Assembly (NCBI GenBank): GCA_027923505.1
Contig: BROI01000016.1
Coordinates: 1-64,000, forward strand
Length of the DNA stretch: 64,000 bases
Source: Mayamaea pseudoterrestris
Taxonomy: Eukaryota
Direction of reading: 5' to 3'
This document shows positions 1-12,300 of the stretch, in pieces. The translations under genes were made by a program, and so were the position numbers. The notes beneath the pieces are model-generated. The model made no database searches. It was not told the origin of the DNA and was given only the letters and a program-made list of their open reading frames with translations. How positions within the stretch are numbered: position 1 is the first letter of the stretch; every line of letters begins with the position of its first letter.

Positions 1-1962
1 TGATGTCAGCACAAAGAGTAACGTCTCGAAACGACTCATGATAGCCGAGAAGTTGCTCAACAATCGCAGGCTTCACCAGATGGACGCGCGACGCGTCGTC
101 TTTCCTTTTAACGAGCCAACATCTGGTCCAAAGATGTGCTCAGCAGCCAGGATGTCGGCCTTCGTCACAGGACAGTTCGGCAACTGATTGCTGTCGATGC
201 GCAGGTAATCCTTGAGGCTTGGCCGTTCAATTTTGATTTGCAGTTCCCAGCTCTAACAGCGCGTAAATAGTCATCATTGGTGTAGTTAGTACGGTTATCG
301 TCTACCGTAGTCAACATCGCCACTCCATCCTTGACATCGCCCTTGCCCTTTGAAAAGCTCTCGCAAACATACAGCCCAGAGTCCGTCTCGACAAACTCGC
401 TGCTTACCGTCCGCTTCTCACGACGGAACATTGGACGCTCCACGCCATGCATGAGATACTCCACGGTAAACTTCTTTCGGACTTGCGCCAAACTCAAATG
501 TTCGCCAGCCCCTGCGGATACCACCACACCGCACCATAGCCCTCCAGGTCGCCCATCATGTTCGTCCTTACTGTACCAGCGTTGCACTTGATCACCATCC
601 ACGTTGGCACCGGGCGAATGTTCGTCAGCATCTTGGCGTTACAGAACAGATCCACTGTCGACTGATTGTCCAAGAGCACAGCCTTCTTCGAGATGTTCAC
701 CTTGGCGGCTGCGCGAACATGTATCCGACCTCGTCGTCGTCGTCGCTATCTTCCTCGCTACCCAGCGTGAAGTGCTGCGCCCCACTAGCCTCTGCAGCCG
801 GGCGCATCTCCGTAGACTCCGCTCTCGTGGGACAGTCTCGCTGCACATGACCAACCTGTTGGCAGATCCAGCATCTGGGAGGGTCACGCGCTGTACCAGT
901 CGTGTGAAACGCCCGCCCTCGTTCGTTGGCAACGTGGCTTCTCCATCCGCATGCTCACGACGCTGCATGATGTTGTATGCATCGTGGATCGTCAACGGGA
1001 AGTTGTCGTGCCCGTCGAGGTAGTAGTTGCGCAAGTGCTTGCAATACCCAGCGTATTCTGCCGTTGCGCCGCGCACGAAAAGCATCGCAAGCTCGAGCTC
1101 TTCGGCGGGCTTGATATGCTCCTTGTTCGCCTTGTTAGGATTGTCATCCTTGGCAATGTTCAGCGCCACAATCTCGTTGTGCATCGTGACGCCAACCGCC
1201 TCGCCACGTCTGCCAGCGTGACCATGCTTTCGTAATATTTCTGCAGGCTTTCGCGCGCTCCTTGAGTACGTCGAACAACTCAGCTTGAATGTCCACGACT
1301 CTGATCCACAAGTTTGCAGCGCCCGCCGTCGTGTGCGAGATCTCCTTGATAATCGCCAGCAACTTAATTCCGTCCGTGTCCTCCTCGGCGTCTCGGAACT
1401 TGGCGTGCGACTTGACACGATCCTTCATACGCTCCGTGCATTGCCCATACAACACGGCGTAGAGACCAGCGAGGAAGTCGGAGTATACACGCACGCGCTC
1501 GACATGCTCTTTCTTGTCGGCCTTGTATTCCTCGAGCATTATGGACCAGTCCGAGTCCGTCGTGTCGGCATCCTTCGTTGGACGCGCAGGCTCGTCAGGA
1601 ATCTCCAGTTCCACGTTGCGCATGCCCTTGAGCAGCTCCTTGGTATATTTCTTGTAGGAGCGCCCGACGAAAGTGATGATCTCGTTCGTCGTACGGATGA
1701 ATCCATCGGGATCGCGCGAACCGTTGTAGTCGTAGATGAAGCCAGCGAGCGTCGGCTCGCTTCCTTGGAAATTTCCACTCGGCGCACGACTCGGTCCGTT
1801 GAGTCTGTTACCATTGCCTTGGTTCCCGGAACGATTCCCAGCACGATTCCCACGACGATAATGACGGTTACGTCGGTTTCCTTCGCTTGCTGGCGGAGCG
1901 GGAGGTGCACCTCCACCGCTCGACGCCGTTCCTGTCGTCGGAGTATTGCTCGTCGAAGACAT
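1..1962 (-). pseudogene. gag-pol polyprotein, broken by several frameshifts in this sequence
   Basis: Coding signal jumps between ORFs 1144-1962, 639-1418, 494-700 and 165-602. This is either real decay or unpolished assembly indels. Confidence 0.75.
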
Positions 1963-1989
1963 GTCTTTTCACTCCCTTCTTGGAGAAAA

Positions 1990-2200
1990 TGTTGGATCTA
2001 GAATATATCTTGCGCGCCCTTGAAGCGACACTAATGATTAAGCAGAACAGAGTCAATAAAACCACTTTACTTATTTTCTCCAAGAAGTGATCGTCCTCGA
2101 TCCACTCCTTCGGTTGCCGCTTACCGCGCTTACTTAAACGTGACCGTCTTCGTGACGTCACCGCTGTCTCTTCGGTTTGGGTTCTCATCCATGCTCAACA
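1990..2200 (-). repeat. 5' LTR, 211 bp
   Basis: Minus strand starts TGTTGAGC (2200) and ends ATCCAACA (1990), giving TGTTG...CAACA inverted termini. It contains a TGACGTCA box (2153-2160) and an Inr-like TCACTTC (2090-2084). The partner LTR is outside the window. Confidence 0.8.
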
Positions 2201-2422
2201 CGTGGCTCCAATGCATCGAACACTGCCGATTCCTGTTTCGTACAAGCTGCTGGCTCGCTGCAGAAATCCAAACATTATTGCGCCCATGTATCCGCCACTG
2301 CCCAGCACGGCGATCCGTTTCTTTGATAGTGGAGTTGCTGCTGATCCCTTTGGTGCGTAATTTGGTAATGTCATTGACAGCGTATTGACGGAATGGACGG
2401 AGAAGAGAAGAAGGAGGAGCAT
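2201..2422 (-). pseudogene. 5' fragment of a host gene (signal peptide + Rossmann NAD(P)-binding start) interrupted by the LTR
   Basis: MLLLLLFSVHSVNTLS...KKRIAVLGSGGYMG (GxxGxxG). The reading frame ends within 2 codons of entering the LTR at 2200. Confidence 0.7.
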
Positions 2423-2761
2423 CCAGCTTGAACGGTCCATAGCTCCTGTAAACATTAGAATATCCTTTTTTTAATACTTATTTCTTTTAAGCAATCGTCT
2501 TCCAATAAAGCTTGGCAAATTGCTTGTATATCCGCTTAAATGGAGAAGGCCAAGCTGGTGAACGTCATGGCCGATATCGACGTCTTTGAGTGTCGCAGCG
2601 AAACCCAGGTCCAAGCATTTTTGGCAAGAAAGCCGCACACAAGTAAGATAGGGCTTGGCGATTTACTACCTATATGGTCAAACTTATTCAGACAGCGTCT
2701 AAAGCACTACCGAGCAAGTTAGTAGCTGTCATTTGTATTTCGGTCTAGCAAGGCGTGCATC

Positions 2762-3967
2762 TTACTCGTCAGGACGAAACGAGGCGAGTTGGCGCGTTGC
2801 TTGACGCGCAATATCTTCCAAAATGTCGCTGTATCGGTAGGTTTCTGCGTCGTCTTTTACTTTCCGAATCTTTCGCGGTAAAGGGCGTGGTTTTGAGCCG
2901 TCATTTACTTTGAGAATCTTTCGTGGTGAAGAGCTGGACCGAGTAGCGGATAAAAGTTTCCCAAACTTCTGTTCGATTCGCGCTGCAGCCGCGTTTCGAA
3001 CGTCGGAGGATCTACCATGAGTCGCAAGCTTCACTTCGGCAAGGTATTCTACGGTACTGTCAAGAACCTTGGTTCGAATCTCTTCCTCCGATAAATGACT
3101 GCCTTGAAGCTTGGCCTCTATTTGAGCTGCAATTTTGTTGAAATGTGCCTGCTGTTGATGCGATGCATCCGCCACAACCGCTTTGACATATGTCTCTTGG
3201 CCTTGCATCAATTGTGGCTTGATGTCTTGCAGATTGCTCAGAAACTTACCGCGTTCGCGACGGGCCACTAAAAGATCCGCGTCAACCTTCCAAATGAATC
3301 CAGCGTCAATCAAAAGTTGCTTCCGGTCCTGACGAATATCGTTCCGATTATTCAAGTATCTCTGTCGAATCATCCACTTGCAAAACGTTGTATCATTGTT
3401 ATAGAAACGAGGAATGTCGCAATGTCCGTAGGTATCACGAAACTCGAGCAGCTTGAGGTACTGTATGTTCCACTTGCAGTCAATCTTGGGTGTGTTTAAA
3501 TGCTGATGCGATCTAAAGCTATTATTCCACCATTGAAAGTTAATTTCGTCAAGCATGGCGATGCGATCCGCTCGCAAATGACCCTTGGAATGCGTGAGGC
3601 GCTGGGTGTTTACCCAATTCACCAATTTCAAATCATGATAATGTTTTGGTGGATTTGTGCTGTTGTATCGCTTTTTGTATGCAATTAGTTTGTTATACAT
3701 GTCTAGCCATATCTCGTCGTATGCAGGCATGATACGTGGCAATGATGAAGTCGCAGAAACAGCAACAGGCTTCCTCTGGACCGGCTTCTTCGTTTCACTC
3801 TTATATGCAGTCATGATGTGCGTACGTGAAGGTGCTGCAGCATTAGCACCAGCCATAGGACTTCGTACGACCATCTTCTTCATTTCAGTCTTTGATGCAG
3901 GCATGTTATTGCCGTAACAAAGGATTGGTAGTGGCTTGCTTAATAGCGGACGCTCCTTCCCTTTCAT
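2762..3967 (-). CDS. Helicase-associated (HA) domain protein, two HA repeats
   Basis: WLDMYNKLIAYKKRY...LVNWVNTQR...RIAMLDEINFQW and WNIQYLKLLEFRDTYGHCDIP...KWMIRQR...LLIDAGFIW. Start codon uncertain. Confidence 0.85.
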   Translation of the reverse strand: MKGKERPLLSKPLPILCYGNNMPASKTEMKKMVVRSPMAGANAAAPSRTHIMTAYKSETKKPVQRKPVAVSATSSLPRIMPAYDEIWLDMYNKLIAYKKRYNSTNPPKHYHDLKLVNWVNTQRLTHSKGHLRADRIAMLDEINFQWWNNSFRSHQHLNTPKIDCKWNIQYLKLLEFRDTYGHCDIPRFYNNDTTFCKWMIRQRYLNNRNDIRQDRKQLLIDAGFIWKVDADLLVARRERGKFLSNLQDIKPQLMQGQETYVKAVVADASHQQQAHFNKIAAQIEAKLQGSHLSEEEIRTKVLDSTVEYLAEVKLATHGRSSDVRNAAAARIEQKFGKLLSATRSSSSPRKILKVNDGSKPRPLPRKIRKVKDDAETYRYSDILEDIARQATRQLASFRPDE

Positions 3968-4195
3968 TCCAAAGAAGAACGAGAACGAAGGGAGGTCGAG
4001 TCATGGTGAAGTCACGTCACTCCCAAGATCCGAATGCACGTCGCAGCGTTACATGACGAGAAACGTGTTGCCTTTCCCGGTACGACTTACACGGAAACCC
4101 GCGCCGTCGCGCCTTCGCCCACCATGAACGCACATTCCTTGATCCACAATCTTACCATCTTCATCAATAGGGCGTCTGATCATAGTTATCAAGCC

Positions 4196-6059
4196 ATGGA
4201 TGAACCATCCCGGAAACGCGCTCGGAATGATTCAACTGCTGCTGAGCGAGAAATTAATGAGGACAATGACGGCCACGATGACGACACGCAGGAGCAGCAA
4301 TTGCTAGCCATGATGGATGGAGACGACTTTGTCACGCAAGCGCAAAAGGAAGAAATGGAAGCAAAGCGAAAGCGAGAGTTGAGGAAACAACGTTTAGTAT
4401 TACTGCAGCAGCAGGAGCAGCCAGAGGAGATGCAAGCGGAGCCTCCGGAAGCATCGAATGAAAACTCTCAACAACCGCATGCTGCTGCTGCTGCTGACTC
4501 TGCTACAAGAGATGAGATAACGAATGAGCCTGACGCTCACGGCTCCGATTTTTTGCGAAAGCAAGATATTAACAATGATTATAATGACGACGACAATGGA
4601 GACGAAGATAGCTTTGACATGTTTTCCAGCTCCGTTTCGCCATTCGCTGAGCGATTGACAAAGCGATCGTCGGACGACGAACATGTGAATAATAGTCATG
4701 TAACGAAACATCACCGACAGAACAACCATCACCACGAGCAGGCAGACTGGGACGACGCGGAAGGCTACTACAAGGCTGTCATTGGTGAATCCATATCCAT
4801 GGAGCTTTCGTCGACGACGACTGGAAGCGCAACGTCTTTGCAGTTTCGCGTGGCAGGGTAAGTGCGAGCAAGAATATGGCTTCAGTTTGAGCGAGCGTCA
4901 AACCTTGTGTTCTGCTGTACACGATTCCTTATATTCGTTGCTCTTCTTAATTTTCTGTTCAAGTGTCATTGGCAAGGGTGTCTTTTCCACCGTCCTCAAA
5001 TGCTCCACCGTCAGCAACGCATCTAGCATTGAAATTCCTCCCATTGTTGCACTCAAGTGCATTCGCCACAACGAAAGCATGGCCAAAGCCGCTCTCAAGG
5101 AGCTAGCCATGTTGCTCAAGCTAAAGGGCGCTCCTGGCATTGTACCGCTATTGCTACCTACCACGACGGCACCGATTGAGCATCGTGGGCATGTGCTACT
5201 TGCCTTTTCATTCATGGAATACAACTTGCGCGACGTGTTGATTAAGTTTGGTAAGGGTGTTGGACTGAGTCTGCAAGCTGTCCGCTCGTATACAGGTCAA
5301 TTGCTGGCGGCGCTCACGCAACTAAAGAAGCATGGCATTATACATTGCGACCTCAAGCCGGATAACATTTTGGTGAGCAGTGACTTTGGGCACTGCCAAA
5401 TTGCTGATTTCGGGTCGGCCGTTGAAGCTAACAATTCAGCCGACAATATTGCCACGCCGTACCTTGTATCGCGCTTTTACAGAGCACCCGAAGTAATTTT
5501 GGGCTTGCAGCCAACCTACATGGTTGATCTCTGGAGCATTGCCGTGACTGTTGTGGAATTATTCTTGGGAGATGTGTTGTTTCGTGGTCAAACCAATAAC
5601 GACATGCTTTTCACCATGATGCAACACTTGGGCCCAATGTCGAACCGACATATTCGCCAACACTTGGTGCAAACGCAACGCATTCCAAACGTTGTCAAGC
5701 AGTTTCAGCAGGAAGGTCCAAACTACAAGTTTGTGCAGCAAACAATGGATCCAGTCACGCAGTCTAGTGTCGTGAAACTACGGCCACTGACAAGTACGAA
5801 CACTGGCAACTCTGCCAGCAGCGCCGACAAGTTCCCCAGCGCCACGCCGCTGGCTACAAAGATAGTAAAGGCCCGCTCCTCCAATGACCGCAAGAGTTTG
5901 GTGCAGCAATTCTCCGACTTGATGCTCAAGTGCTTGGCGCTGGATCCGACCCGGCGCATGGAGCTTCGCGATGCCTTGCGGCACGAGTTCTTTGCGAGTA
6001 GCGCAGCCGCAAACATTCCTTCCTCCGTCACGACGAGTTCTAATGGTAACGGCATCTAA
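4196..6059 (+). CDS. PRPF4B: Pre-mRNA splicing kinase PRP4 (CMGC family); intron 4858-4963
   Basis: WDDAEGYYK, GKGVFSTV, HCDLKPDNIL, DFGSA, TPYLVSRFYRAPE. The GTAAGT...AAG intron joins the two ORFs in frame. Confidence 0.93.
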
Positions 6060-6179
6060 TGATTACTTTGCTATTTCAAGTGCTCAATGTACTATATTCT
6101 TTAGTCACAATTTTCACTACCGGTACTTTAGTATCACCTTTTAACGGAGCTCTTCCACCTTCCACGCCCCAAAGCAATG

Positions 6180-6695
6180 TCAATGACCATGACTACTATT
6201 CTTCTTCTTTTGCGTAAATCTCAAGGCGCAATACTTGCACGGCTCGACCGCTCCTGGAACCTTGAGCGAAATGTATTCCACCGGATGCCCCATGGCCCCG
6301 CCACCTCCGTCGCAAATGGCCATTTCTCCGTCCACCTCCACGGGCGGAACGCGCTGCACCAGTTCCAACGCGTTGGACCGGTGCTTGCCGAGTTTGTACT
6401 GATGAAGAGATATAGTTGTTAGAAAGTGATTTAAAAAGTGAGTAAAGCAAATAATGACGCCTTCAACAACATGCGTTACTCGATATTTCATTCTTACCAT
6501 ACTCTCCTCTCCCGTCCGATTCATTTTACGTAAATCCTCCGGCTGAAACACCACATCCGCCGGATTCGTCACGGGAGGACCTCGACCGGGCGTGGAGATT
6601 GGTTGCACGGCAAAGGAGCGAGTCAGAACGAAGGCTGGGCCTCGACGCGACAGGAGTTTGGATGCAGCGGCACTAGCAGCAGAGAGCGTAGTCAT
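6180..6695 (-). CDS. NDUFS6: Mitochondrial complex I zinc-finger subunit (13 kDa); in-frame intron 6399-6497
   Basis: CDGGGGAMGHPVEYISL...PCKYCALRF (zf-CHCC) and an Arg/Ser/Ala-rich presequence. Confidence 0.9.
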   Translation of the reverse strand: MTTLSAASAAASKLLSRRGPAFVLTRSFAVQPISTPGRGPPVTNPADVVFQPEDLRKMNRTGEESMVRMKYRVTHVVEGVIICFTHFLNHFLTTISLHQYKLGKHRSNALELVQRVPPVEVDGEMAICDGGGGAMGHPVEYISLKVPGAVEPCKYCALRFTQKKKNSSHGH

Positions 6696-6966
6696 TATCA
6701 GTAAAATCTTTTATATTTTAAATGAAGAAAGAGTATTGCCACTTGCAATGGAGCAGCTTGATCGCACACAAAGGCGGCTTCAAAAGGTGCCTTTTCGTCA
6801 TGGTGAAGCAGCGGCTGACGTTCGAAGATTGAGTCCCGATGAGATTCCAGTAATGGTGCGACACTATGATTCGTTTCAACGCTTGGCGCGCTGCGCCTCG
6901 AATCAGCATGGGATTTGTTCCGCCGCGCGCTACCGGTATCTTTTTACTTGCTGCCAAATGTAAAGC

Positions 6967-9159
6967 ATGACTACAACTGACAAAGCTGATGCAATAACAA
7001 CTCTAGAAAATGGTGAAGTCAAGGAAAGCAAATTGATTAACGGTGTTGGCAGTAGCGTCAACAAGGACCATACATCCGCCAACAGTAATTTCTCCTCCAA
7101 GATTCTCTGCCGCACCATTCAGGAGCTCACGACGCGCCACGAGATTGAAACATGTTTAGCAAACATGACGGCCGACTTGGAGCTCTCCACCAGGCTCCAC
7201 GACGAACTGGTGCACGAGTCGCTCGTCAATGACTTGCTTAGCAAGCTGGCGCAGGCGCAAGCAGCACTGGATGAAGTGGAAGCGGTTCGCAGGCAACAAC
7301 GCGACCGTGACGTCAAAATGGCCGATTCGCTCCTGCAGGAAATGCTCGCGTGGAGCCAGGAGCATGGGCTACTCAAGCGAGTGGAGCAAGACTACAAGAA
7401 TTTGCTGCAGCAACATGATGAAGTAGTGGCAAGGTTACTGCAAAAGGAAATGGAACTGGAGGATTTCTCCAAGCGAGTCAAGCAGAATCGCAATGCGAGT
7501 AGCGCGAATGCTACTGAGAATGACAAGCAAGAAGCAGAAGCGTGCGAAACTGCGCAAAATATTGTTGGTGACGATTTACTGCAACAGCAAGAAACTGTCG
7601 CTCTCGCCATTTCCGACTCGCTGAACGACACCTTGCTGCAATCCACCAATCCTCCAGCGCCGCTGCAAATGCCATTGTTGGAATCTACCAAAACTGATGG
7701 CAGTGATTTAAAAGACGAAATGATACTGGAACCAAAGTTGAAGGATTTTGTTCCGTCGCCGCCGCAGTCGCCTTCGCGTTTGGTGCAAGCGACGGAACCG
7801 ACTGTTTCATTGATTGCGGAGAATGCTGAGAGTGACACGTTACAGCAGCAAGAACAACAGCAACAAGATCAGGGCAACGTGAGTCTCGATGAGCTCGACA
7901 ACAAGTACTTAATGCTCATTTGCTCCTACTTGGACGCCCTTGATATATTGAATTTGGCGCAAACCAACATTGGCATGTACTCGAGGATTGATACCATGTT
8001 TGGCATGGGCGGGGATGACAATGACTCGACCATTGCCAGTGATGAGCAGCAGATGCAATATAGCAACATGAATACAAGTGCAGAAGCGAGTAGTGACAAT
8101 ATTGGTGATAGGACTGGAGCAACAACAGAGTCGGTGGCGAATAGCACCAATGCAAGTACAGCCTTGGCCACATTGCAGGAGCCACCTGCTGCCGCGCCGC
8201 AGCAACCACAAGCAACGATTGTAAACATTCCTCCTGCACCCGCCACTGCGTCGATACCAGTTTCGACGCCGACGCGCGCCACAACAAAGTCGGATCCAAA
8301 CGGCAGCAGCAGCAAGATGAACGTTTACTCGACACCGACTCGGGAACGCTCCAATAGCTCGGCGGCAGCGACGACGCCAGCGCCGATTCAAACGGCTGGA
8401 TCCTTTGACGGCCCACGCAACATTTTTGCCAGCCTCTTGCAGCCGCGTAAGAGTCCCATTGCTAGCAGTAGTCAAAGCAACAACAACAATAGCAACAAGT
8501 CTTCCATTATGAGTGCCGCCATGGCCAACTCCATGGGCGCCAAGCTATCCGACGCTGAATTAAATGCCATTATCACAATGACAAAGCGACTCAAGGAGAA
8601 GGAGAGTTTGGTAGAAAGTCTGCAGCAGCACGTGTCGGAAACAACGGCCAAACTGGAAGGAAGTGAGGCGGTCAAGCAGTTTTTGGTGCAAAAATGTCGA
8701 GAGATGGAAGATTCCTTGGCGGCACTGCAAGACCATGATTCCAAGGTTGCCTTGCAGATTGCGACCGACCAGGATGTCATTGCCTATTTGGATGGCCGCG
8801 TGCAGGAGCTTGAGGGAAAGATGGAGGAGCTGCAGGCGCAATTGGATCAGTCGGTCGCCACGGTTCAACGTGTTCAGGAACAAGCGGAGCAAAAGAGCAT
8901 TGTCATGGGTGACATGCTGCAGTATGAGCGCGAAAAGCTTCAGGAGAGCGAGCGTGAGTGGAAGGCCACTAAGAAGCTATTGATCAAGGAAGTCAAGCAT
9001 TGTCGCGCGCAAATGGTTTCGCTGCAGGCGGAACGAGATGGTTATCGCGAGCAAAATGACAAGTTAAAGAGTGCCGTCTTGTCATCCTCGTCTGTTTCCT
9101 CTCCATCGTCTGCGGTGCAAAGGAATTATTCACAGTCTCTGTCATCGAGTGGTTATTGA
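6967..9159 (+). CDS. Large coiled-coil protein with central F-box-like motif
   Basis: 730-aa ORF with N- and C-terminal heptad regions. LDELDNKYLMLICSYLDALDILNLAQTN at ~7885-7970 resembles an F-box. Confidence 0.75.
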   Translation: MTTTDKADAITTLENGEVKESKLINGVGSSVNKDHTSANSNFSSKILCRTIQELTTRHEIETCLANMTADLELSTRLHDELVHESLVNDLLSKLAQAQAALDEVEAVRRQQRDRDVKMADSLLQEMLAWSQEHGLLKRVEQDYKNLLQQHDEVVARLLQKEMELEDFSKRVKQNRNASSANATENDKQEAEACETAQNIVGDDLLQQQETVALAISDSLNDTLLQSTNPPAPLQMPLLESTKTDGSDLKDEMILEPKLKDFVPSPPQSPSRLVQATEPTVSLIAENAESDTLQQQEQQQQDQGNVSLDELDNKYLMLICSYLDALDILNLAQTNIGMYSRIDTMFGMGGDDNDSTIASDEQQMQYSNMNTSAEASSDNIGDRTGATTESVANSTNASTALATLQEPPAAAPQQPQATIVNIPPAPATASIPVSTPTRATTKSDPNGSSSKMNVYSTPTRERSNSSAAATTPAPIQTAGSFDGPRNIFASLLQPRKSPIASSSQSNNNNSNKSSIMSAAMANSMGAKLSDAELNAIITMTKRLKEKESLVESLQQHVSETTAKLEGSEAVKQFLVQKCREMEDSLAALQDHDSKVALQIATDQDVIAYLDGRVQELEGKMEELQAQLDQSVATVQRVQEQAEQKSIVMGDMLQYEREKLQESEREWKATKKLLIKEVKHCRAQMVSLQAERDGYREQNDKLKSAVLSSSSVSSPSSAVQRNYSQSLSSSGY

Positions 9160-9335: not shown

Positions 9336-12300
9336 TTAGAGCGGGCAGATTTCCACTTGACCGGACAAGTACTTTCGGTCGTCGGTGCCCAAGGGAAAGA
9401 CTTCATAGACAGGACCCCAGTTACTTCTTACAGTGTTGCTACTGTTGAATGTAAAGGTATTCGACGATTGAGGTCCTGACGTAAGGGGGTACGTGTCGGG
9501 GTCACGCGCGAACTTGGCGACGTCGTCTGCCAGGCATACTCCGGTGTCCAAGTGGTCGCCAGAATCGTTACCGATGCATTCGCCAGCATAGAAATTGAAT
9601 TCAAACGTATAGGCGTCACTCGAGTAAGGGGCAAGAAGTGTGACACTGAAAGAGCTTGGGGTGATTGTAGCTGTTCCAATTTTTGTGCCTCCCTCGCAGT
9701 TCTCGGCTTCGATAAAGACTTCGCAGTCATCAACGACTCCATCGACGGAGCTATATTCAATGTTCCAACCCCAAGGCTCTTGCCCATCTACACCAGCAAT
9801 GCAGTTGAATGATGAATCTAGGAAGCACGTCGATCTGTCTGCACATTTAACGTATGCATCCATGCATGGACTCGGAGTTGAACTTGTTGGGACACCAACG
9901 ACGTCGTCATTAATCGCGGCCAATTTGGTTGGAACAAGCGTAGTGAGAGGGAGGGCAGAGGTGGGACTTGCCGTTAAGTCGCCGTCACCATCGCCGCCAA
10001 ATGGGGGGTTAGCCGTACTAACTGTAGTGGGTGTTGTTGTAGCCGGGCTAACGGTAGTAGCCGGAATTTCTGTGTGCTGTGACGGTGGGCAGTCATCCGT
10101 GAGAGGATCACTAGAGGGCACTGGTGTTTCCTCAGTAACAAGCAGCGTCGTTGGAACCTCTGTGGGTGCCGCAACAGCGACTGGCGCTTTTGACACTGGA
10201 GAAGCGGACACGGGCGCTGCTGAAACTGGAGCAGCAGAGGCAGGCGCTGCAGAAATTGGAGCCTTAGACACAGGCGCCGCTGAAACTGGGGCGGCTGAAA
10301 CTGGAGCCGCGGATACAGGCGCTGCTGAAGCTGGGGCGGCTGAAACTGGAGCCGCAGAGGCAGGCGCTGCTGAAACTGGAGCCGCGGATACAGGCGCTGC
10401 TGAAGCTGGGGCGGCTGAAACTGGAGCCGCAGAGGCAGGCGCTGCTGAAACTGGGGCGGCTGAAACTGGAGCTGCTGAGACTGGATCGATTGAGACGGGC
10501 GCCAAAGACACAGGCGCAGCCGATACTGGAGAGGCAGTAACTGGTGCAGAGGTTGGCTTGACAGTCTCTGGGACATTGTACATTGTCGGTGTGGCGGTAA
10601 CTTCCGGAGTGGTTGGAAGTGGAGCGGGTGCTATCGTTGGCGTAGAAGTTGCATCAGGGACTGGTTTTGATGACGGTTCAGGGGTTCCCTGCTCAATGAA
10701 AAACGGAGTCGGAGCCGGTGTGGTGGGGCAGACGCAGACGCATTCTGATGGTGCTTCGACGGGAGCCGCGGCTGGTGCTGCGACGATTTGATTGACCGGT
10801 GACCGAGTGACTGCTCCAAGTGAGGCCGACGGTGCAGAAGTCATGGCCAATGAAGGCTTGGCCGTTGGACGAGAGGTAGTTGATGGTGTTGGAAGCGGCG
10901 TTGCACGACCAGTTGGAGCGCCGGTGCGTGGACGCATGGTGCGACGTGGTGTTGAAGGCGAAGTTGTCGGAGTTCCAGTTGGGACGGCTACAGGTGCATT
11001 CATGGGTGCAATCACTGTCGCCGGATTTGGGACCACCAATGATGTCGGTTCTGCTCCTCCTTGCTCAGCAAGGGGTGCTGTTGTTGGCTGTTGCGGCGTG
11101 TATGCGCAAATCTGAGCATGACCCGAAAGATAAAGTGGCGTGTGCGTGTCAAGTGGAAAAGTTTCATACTTGGTGGTCGCAGATGCCCATGCAGCGGTAG
11201 TATAGGTTTCCTGGTTGTTAAAGTCGTACAACCATCGGTTCGTGGCGGACTTGATGTCTAGCGGTGTTGAGACAGGGTAGTTGTAAATATCATACGGTGC
11301 ATATTGATAGCTTCCGCACTCCATGTCATTCAACCATGAGCCTCCGTTGTCATTCATGACACACTCGCCAGCATACAATTGGAATCCCATGCTGGCATAC
11401 CCCTTTTTAATGTACCAAGTCACAGTGTCGCTGTCAATGGTGGCAGTTCCAAGCAACTCTCCTTCGTCCATGGTACAGCTAGTTGCGCCGCCCCAAACCT
11501 CACATTCCAAGGGACCGCTTGCGCCAAAATCGTAGTCTGTCAAATTAATGACCCATCCACTGGCAGCATCCGGTGCCATGACACCGGGGTAGCTGTCAAA
11601 ACAAGTCGACATGGCAGCACCACAGTAGATCCAAGAGTAGGAGCAAGTTTCTTCCGACACGCTCGACGAAGGTGTTTCCGCTGGTGCCAGCGTCTGCGGA
11701 GTCATGAATGACGTTGGGAGCTCCGGCGACAATCCGGTCGGCGTTTGTGCTTGGGCACCGGTCTGCGGAACCAGCAACGATGTGGGTAGATCGGTAGACG
11801 CTGTCGGCGAGACTGCTGGTGCAAGTGTCTGTGGTACCAGTTTTGCTGTTGGTAACTTGGTGGGAGACAATGTCGCAGGTACGCCTGTCGGAACAGTCGT
11901 TGGCTTTGGTGTTGGTCCTTCCGAAGGAACGTTTGTCGGTGAAACAGTCTGCGGCACAATGTTCAAGGTGGGTTCCAACGGAATGAACGGAAGTGTATAC
12001 TCTGGAGTCGGAACGGGGGATGGCCGAGGCGTGGCGCTGGCACTGGTGGGCTGTTCCGTAGGAGCTGGCGTTGACCCGCTCGTTGGCAGTGAAGTCGGTC
12101 TTGGGGATGGAAGTGGAGTCACGCGAGCCGTTTTTGGTGCTTTCGATGGCGACGCGGCCAAAGCCTGTGTAGGTGCTGCGGTAGGCAATGGTGTGGGTCT
12201 TGGGGAAGGAAGTGGGGTTGGGCGAGCCGTTTTTGGGGCTTTGGACGGACGCGTGGTGGTAGCCTGTGTAGGTAAGTTCGTCGGCAAGGGCGTCGGAGGT

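Follow-up and report, generated by a model that had tools for sequence, protein, structure and literature searches.

How does an LTR retrotransposon begin reverse transcription when the bases at its primer site do not resemble the 3' end of a tRNA? The question is raised by a Ty1/Copia-like element at one end of the 64,000-nt stretch of the Mayamaea pseudoterrestris genome that we analysed (contig BROI01000016.1, called the window below). The sequence at the inner end of its 5' LTR is complementary to a segment within the same LTR, and the initial annotation of this DNA read that arrangement as a signature of self-priming, in which the transcript of the element would serve as its own primer.

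The element and its primer site

The element runs off the start of the window, and its features and surroundings, all on the minus strand, are these:

2201..2455, minus: host flank, with an 86-aa ORF running into the LTR; summed contig depth falls at 2201
1990..2200, minus: 5' LTR, 211 nt, with a TGTTG...CAACA terminal inverted repeat
2088..2200, minus: inferred U3, whose first ~70 nt are the end of the pol frame when the LTR is the 3' one
2086..2090, minus: initiator-like TCACT, matching the diatom motif TCAH+1W; predicted +1 at 2087
2073..2087, minus: predicted self-primer, which would form the opening 15 nt of the transcript, where R begins; it is the complement of the primer binding site
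1991..2072, minus: rest of R-U5, the loop between primer and primer binding site, with internal hairpins in the predicted fold
1976..1990, minus: putative primer binding site, whose first base, 1990, also ends the LTR; it has no TGG
1975, minus: first unpaired base after the primer binding site; G in the window copy, C in family contigs (four runs)
1144..1962, minus: gag ORF, 272 aa; ATG at 1962-1960; tail out of frame
1..1143, minus: in three different frames, degenerate remains of gag with a CCHC knuckle, of a protease-like region and of the beginning of the integrase region, by comparison with P0001

The gag ORF matches, at 90% identity over 33% of the query length, a 1,477-aa polyprotein of M. 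pseudoterrestris (P0001, named hypothetical protein in its source) that is an intact relative. The reverse transcriptase of the window copy falls outside the window, and the RVT_2 assignment was made on P0001, in which Pfam places zf-CCHC at residues 223-238 and RVT_2 at 968-1191 (E = 2.8e-16). No integrase family reached E 0.01 in a Pfam search of P0001, but the spacing of its domains fits the Copia order: the reverse transcriptase lies in the C-terminal third, with about 730 aa between it and the zinc knuckle and only about 290 aa after it. TG...CA LTR ends were found around the coding region, both in the window LTR and in the LTR pair of one relative (L034). Pfam searches of the window's own ORF pieces gave no significant family; a PTPlike_phytase match to these pieces was sub-threshold and was disregarded. 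The gag match to a polyprotein bearing RVT_2 supports placing the element in Ty1/Copia, the class named in the initial annotation.

The outer end of the LTR lies at 2200/2201, since Logan contigs of other insertions diverge from the window at 2201. The inner end, at 1990, was placed by homology to relatives whose LTRs end in CAACA. L034 has a true LTR pair in which both copies end in CAACA, with a primer site after the 5' copy and unrelated flank after the 3' copy. The last 22 residues of P0001 are encoded, with one difference, by window positions 2198-2133, and a TAA stop follows at 2132-2130; therefore the pol frame ends about 70 nt inside the 3' LTR, and 2200-2130 is independently identified as LTR sequence.

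In run X1, summed contig depth, which is not a copy number, was 5,634-42,562 in bins lying wholly inside the element and 52-139 in the flank (1,024-8,941 and 18-37, respectively, in run X2); it fits a multi-copy family. Within the window itself, a BLAST search of positions 1-2250 against all 64 kb returned only the query region. The element extends beyond window base 1, and because one contig links that base to the LTR start through 2,795 further letters, a complete element would be about 5.2 kb long. The window copy shifts among all three reading frames, and contigs of other copies carry single-base, frame-restoring insertions or deletions relative to it. Judged by these multiple frameshifts, the copy is dead, and because of them its features mirror the family and not current activity.

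On the host side, the 86-aa ORF (2195-2455, minus) has a signal-peptide-like start and a GSGGYMG motif. It continues directly into the LTR, so the insertion appears to have disrupted a gene. The contigs also hold a second version of the flank at this ORF, with 32 differences in 225 nt. Elsewhere in the window, positions 10151-10570 hold a tandem array of about 19 units with a 15-nt period in a coding-like region, unrelated to the Copia element.

At the primer site, the minus strand reads ATTTTCTCCAAGAAG at 1990-1976, and CTTCTTGGAGAAAAT at 2087-2073, where TCA precedes it at 2090-2088. The two segments are complementary at 15 of 15 bases and no TGG follows the LTR, exactly as had been claimed. 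The claim that the site begins right after the LTR needs adjusting: it does lie at the LTR end, but by homology to the CAACA-ending relatives 1990 is the last LTR base, and so the duplex extends one base into U5. A repeat search lists the pair as an inverted repeat of 18 nt at 94% (I6), and the 15-mer occurs exactly twice in the 64 kb, at these two places and in opposite orientation. The site is not palindromic. In the window copy the gag ATG follows 28 nt after the LTR, and in one relative (L041) it overlaps the end of the primer site, so there is no space for another site. ARAGORN found no tRNA gene in the window and none in 24 of the 79 loci of relatives.

Primer sites and LTR complements in related elements

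A search with P0001 gave 270 relatives, and named proteins of Nitzschia and Fragilaria are among the 120 listed. Twenty of these were aligned (A1), and this alignment was used to fetch 79 metagenome loci; the proteins that they encode have 33-68% identity to P0001, and 15 contigs are circular permutations with one collapsed LTR. In ten loci that have an ORF of at least 1,500 aa and an upstream or collapsed LTR in view, the bases after CAACA differ from element to element, and in each of the ten their exact complement is present in the element's own LTR.

We scanned 80 sequences (the 79 loci and the window) systematically for perfect complements of at least 12 nt counted from the LTR-terminal AACA, and obtained matches in 47 of the 80 compared to 3 of 80 in a minus-strand control. 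Three of the 47 (L046, L054 and L064) were removed as chance-level matches; their complements are 12-14 nt long and enclose loops of 441-1612 nt, and they have neither a TCA motif nor, within the locus, a gag N-terminus. The LTR/gag junction is present in 48 loci, and 44 of these 48 have a perfect 14-18-nt complement inside their own LTR, a rate that excludes the remaining 32 of the 80 sequences, which have no junction and are uninformative. Only four loci with a gag 5' region fail to match: L034, an old copy, has 15 pairs of which two are G·U (giving 44 perfect and one wobble-tolerant of 48), and in L031, L032 (together one element) and L073, all of which bear the junction, no recognisable LTR end was seen. 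Downstream of the site, 39 of the 44 have gag N-terminal homology, mostly with the start of gag within about 100 nt; 12 of the 39 have longer leaders or gaps before gag. The complement sits in the LTR, 52-150 nt upstream of the primer site.

Although the complementarity is kept, the sequence is not. The 44 relatives carry 34 distinct 15-mers at the primer site, which differ from one another at a median of 8 of 14 positions; most are very AT-rich, and none of the 34 begins with TGG. One fixed host tRNA would hardly account for sites that are so different, so AT-rich and never TGG-starting. Each site matches its own LTR over 14-18 nt, compared to mostly 5-8 nt in 1,122 cross comparisons with the LTRs of other elements; the few cross matches of 11-14 nt presumably come from related families.

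Two loci hold tandem elements with one common LTR (L025:7240-16237 and L037:4500-10706). Their tandem copies are 92% and 97.5% identical, respectively, so these are no mere collapse of the assembly. Tf1 makes shared-LTR tandems by integrase-independent insertion at primer-site homology (PMC11042837).

Covariation, folding and the predicted start of the transcript

With the last LTR base numbered as position 0 of the pairing register, positions 1-13 are Watson-Crick pairs in all 34 distinct elements, each position occurring as two to four pair types, and position 14 has 33 Watson-Crick pairs and one G·U. Position 0 is paired in 23 of 34. Beyond the duplex, positions 15 and 16 are paired in 9/34 and 7/34, which is the chance level. 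The scan chose perfect complements, so this per-position table is partly circular; the 44/48 rate, the controls and the unprompted RNAalifold result described below are free of that circularity. Close pairs of elements are informative: the L002 and L003 sites differ at one position, and in L002/L003, L006/L007 and L008/L018 the differences are compensated.

In a MAFFT alignment of 25 R-U5-PBS segments (A2), 93.6% of the cells in the helix are paired, compared to 56.4% in shuffles and 38-48% in controls in which the arms were slid. The first of these values is conservative because three rows misaligned at their 5' ends by MAFFT (L006, L007 and L016) were retained. The covariation score is 0.89 compared to 0.21 in shuffles, and 0 of 500 shuffles scored as high. 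RNAalifold predicts the helix unprompted, with compensatory changes in 14 of 14 pairs. The initial annotation had proposed looking in related elements for compensatory covariation and for conservation of the complementarity, and both were found there, in the form of 44 perfect complements among 48 loci and a compensatory change in every pair. Taken together with the pair counts and the RNAalifold result, these comparisons lend strong support to the proposed self-priming signature.

The helix also appears in folds of single sequences. For the window RNA (2088-1970), the minimum-energy and centroid folds both pair nucleotides 2-16 with the primer binding site, at -32.3 kcal/mol (z = -2.72), and 0 of 200 shuffles folded as well. 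The same helix is present in the minimum-energy fold of all 25 relatives that were folded. Many folds have a three-branch layout with six unpaired bases (TTCAAC) directly before the primer site. Some 25-45 nt short of the LTR end, a U5 hairpin (A2 columns 107-130; approximately 2035-2012, minus strand, in the window) recurs in many relatives; it has some compensatory changes and 64.6% of its cells are paired compared to 53.6% in shuffles, figures that hint at conservation. Right after the primer segment (A2 columns 21-29), many relatives have in common a T-rich motif, approximately TYTRRTTTA, which might be a polyadenylation or structural signal.

The 5' limit of the paired LTR segment is sharp and coincides with an initiator-like motif. 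The four bases before the segment are CTCA in 18 of the 34 distinct elements and GCTC in four more, in which the A itself is paired; 27 of the 34 have A at position -1. In diatoms, the initiator-like consensus is TCAH+1W, with CAY+1A for FCP genes, and both motifs set +1 on the base after CA (Kadono et al., PMC4686930). In the 34 elements, +1 as given by TCAHW falls on the first base of the duplex in 22, one base further in for five and one base ahead of the duplex for one; the other six have no exact match. A halt of the pairing at CTCA is what would be expected if the bases upstream were absent from the RNA. By this motif and by the place where pairing ends, transcription of the window element would start at 2087 more probably than at 2088. 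The two most distant elements (33-43% identity; L068:852-1000 and L079:2340-2515) keep complements of 17-18 nt and have no TCA motif. Their paired segments are preceded by AAGA or AGAC instead of CTCA, and they may have a different start-site motif.

Probable self-priming and its alternatives

The Copia sequence in the window is the 5' end of one frameshifted member of a high-copy diatom Ty1/Copia family. We consider it very probable that this family, together with a broad diatom lineage around it, self-primes in the manner of Tf1. Transcription would begin within the LTR at window base 2087, just past the conserved CTCA. The RNA would fold back across the ~80-100-nt R-U5, so that its opening 14-15 nt pair with 1990-1976. 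The element's RNase H would then cut the duplex and free a 3' OH, from which reverse transcriptase would extend through U5 and R. The sequences show the complementarity, where it lies, that it is kept through compensatory change, its sharp 5' limit and the lack of space for a different primer site; where transcription starts, that the duplex is cut and that the 5' segment primes are what we infer. The source of the primer may be either copy of R, the 5' or the 3' one, or a partner RNA.

The explanations that compete with self-priming fare differently against the comparative data. That the inverted repeat arose by chance, or is an artefact peculiar to the window copy, is suggested by its short length and by nothing else, and scarcely deserves credence: at up to two mismatches the 15-mer has 3 matches in the window compared to 0.22 expected, a number that 0 of 100 shuffles reach; none of the 40 contig differences listed for the four runs, out of 92, touches either arm, and the nearest of those listed is at 1975, adjoining the primer site; and the presence of the feature in 44 of 48 testable relatives already refutes it. 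Slightly less improbable, yet still very hard to sustain, is priming by a tRNA, a half-tRNA or an internal tRNA fragment, as in other Copia elements, with the LTR match incidental. Half-tRNA and internal-fragment sites without TGG are indeed described for Copia lineages (PMC6317226; PMC5445492), and the window site, taken by itself, could conceivably match a tRNA fragment. The 34 diatom sites, however, diverge as set out above and are mostly very AT-rich, and each of them fits its own LTR, with no sequence common to all.

A more serious competitor, although we regard it as unlikely, is that the helix is a structure of the leader RNA with another role, such as packaging, dimerisation, control of gag translation or cyclisation of the genome, and that some other primer is used. 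In Ty1, leader pairings over long distances are known to have roles of this kind, and the diatom helix does close a multi-branch R-U5 fold in all 25 of the relatives folded. Against this, the 3' arm is always exactly at the LTR end, the usual place of the primer site in LTR elements, and no other candidate site is available before gag, whose ATG overlaps the site in L041. Moreover, the predicted +1 is exactly where the 5' arm stops, a coincidence that priming requires and a mere structure does not. Self-priming thus remains the reading that we favour.

The base that follows the primer site suggests a further, much more tentative extension of self-priming. It is C in 21 of the 34 distinct elements, compared to a background frequency of C of 0.20 (binomial p = 1.5e-7), and although the window copy has G there, the contig comparison at 1975 (C>G on the plus strand) shows C on the minus strand in the family's contigs from all four runs. 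The would-be partner of this C in the LTR is almost always A, so the C is not kept for pairing. Reverse transcriptases are known to copy caps, and we speculate that the C could derive from the cap guanosine, if plus-strand strong-stop synthesis runs through a retained primer that still has its cap. On this reading a large Copia lineage found across diatoms would self-prime in general, with the capped 5' end of the RNA itself as the primer, a possibility that we hold to be doubtful but worth stating. If it were true, the C would be a genomic footprint of the exact transcription start and of cap copying. In every cycle the primer site would also be written anew from the RNA's 5' end, which would explain how perfect pairing coexists with free drift of the sequence. 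Such a mechanism would fit the idea that self-priming is old in LTR elements (PMC3601003).

Comparison with known systems and significance

To our knowledge, self-priming is known experimentally only for Tf1 and Tf2, and it has been proposed for the Tf1/Sushi group. In Tf1 of Schizosaccharomyces pombe, no tRNA is used and fold-back over R-U5 is needed (PMC7175516). The diatom elements are like Tf1 and Tf2 in that a primer site at the LTR end pairs with the predicted 5' end of the transcript across R-U5. They differ in belonging, by RVT_2, to Ty1/Copia, whereas Tf1 and Tf2 are Ty3/Gypsy elements, and they are not members of the Tf1/Sushi clade. Their duplex is 14-15 nt long (up to 18), compared to the 11 given for Tf1. 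Self-priming was shown by experiment in Tf1, whereas the diatom elements are known here from sequence alone.

Closer in classification are two groups of Copia elements. Neumann et al. predicted that 12% of plant elements self-prime, among them those of the Copia TAR lineage, to which Houba and Osr-1 belong (PMC6317226). Like these, the diatom element is a Copia element with a site predicted to be self-primed and not tRNA-primed; unlike them, it has a diatom and not a land plant as host, a comparison made with TAR by description only. Fungal GalEa Copia elements have no primer binding site and carry instead a Conserved Hairpin Site, a palindromic 9-bp structure that overlaps the last LTR base, and the authors state that they found no complement of it in the LTR (PMC5445492). 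The diatom element resembles GalEa in being a Copia element without a tRNA-type site and with a conserved structure at that place, but its site is not palindromic and its complement is present in the LTR.

Diatom-specific Copia elements have been described as CoDi, with a length of about 5-8 kb and short TG...CA LTRs of 153-844 bp, according to the main text of Maumus et al. 2009 (PMC2806351). Our element, a diatom Copia with short TG...CA LTRs, is like the CoDi elements as they are described there. The main text of that paper never discusses a primer binding site ('PBS' occurs in it only as a buffer), and a full-text literature search, which covered the CoDi paper by its main text, found no report of self-priming in diatom retrotransposons.

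The priming of reverse transcription is a defining step in the life of LTR elements, and tools that annotate LTR elements by seeking tRNA-type sites will miss or misjudge elements like these. Ty1-Copia elements dominate the repeats of at least one diatom genome, in which repeats make up 19% and are mainly Ty1-Copia (PMC9724779); according to the same paper, RNA-seq of M. pseudoterrestris exists. The match between site and LTR would also allow the transcription start of each family to be predicted from DNA sequence. Copia elements have been linked to self-priming before, by the prediction for the plant TAR lineage (PMC6317226). What the diatom elements add is a second Copia lineage with probable self-priming (TAR being compared by description), in a different eukaryotic supergroup and with an unusually clear comparative signal, 34 primer sites that each match their own LTR. 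Because this second lineage belongs to another supergroup, the trait would either have arisen repeatedly or be ancient, and either origin bears on the evolution of tRNA priming.
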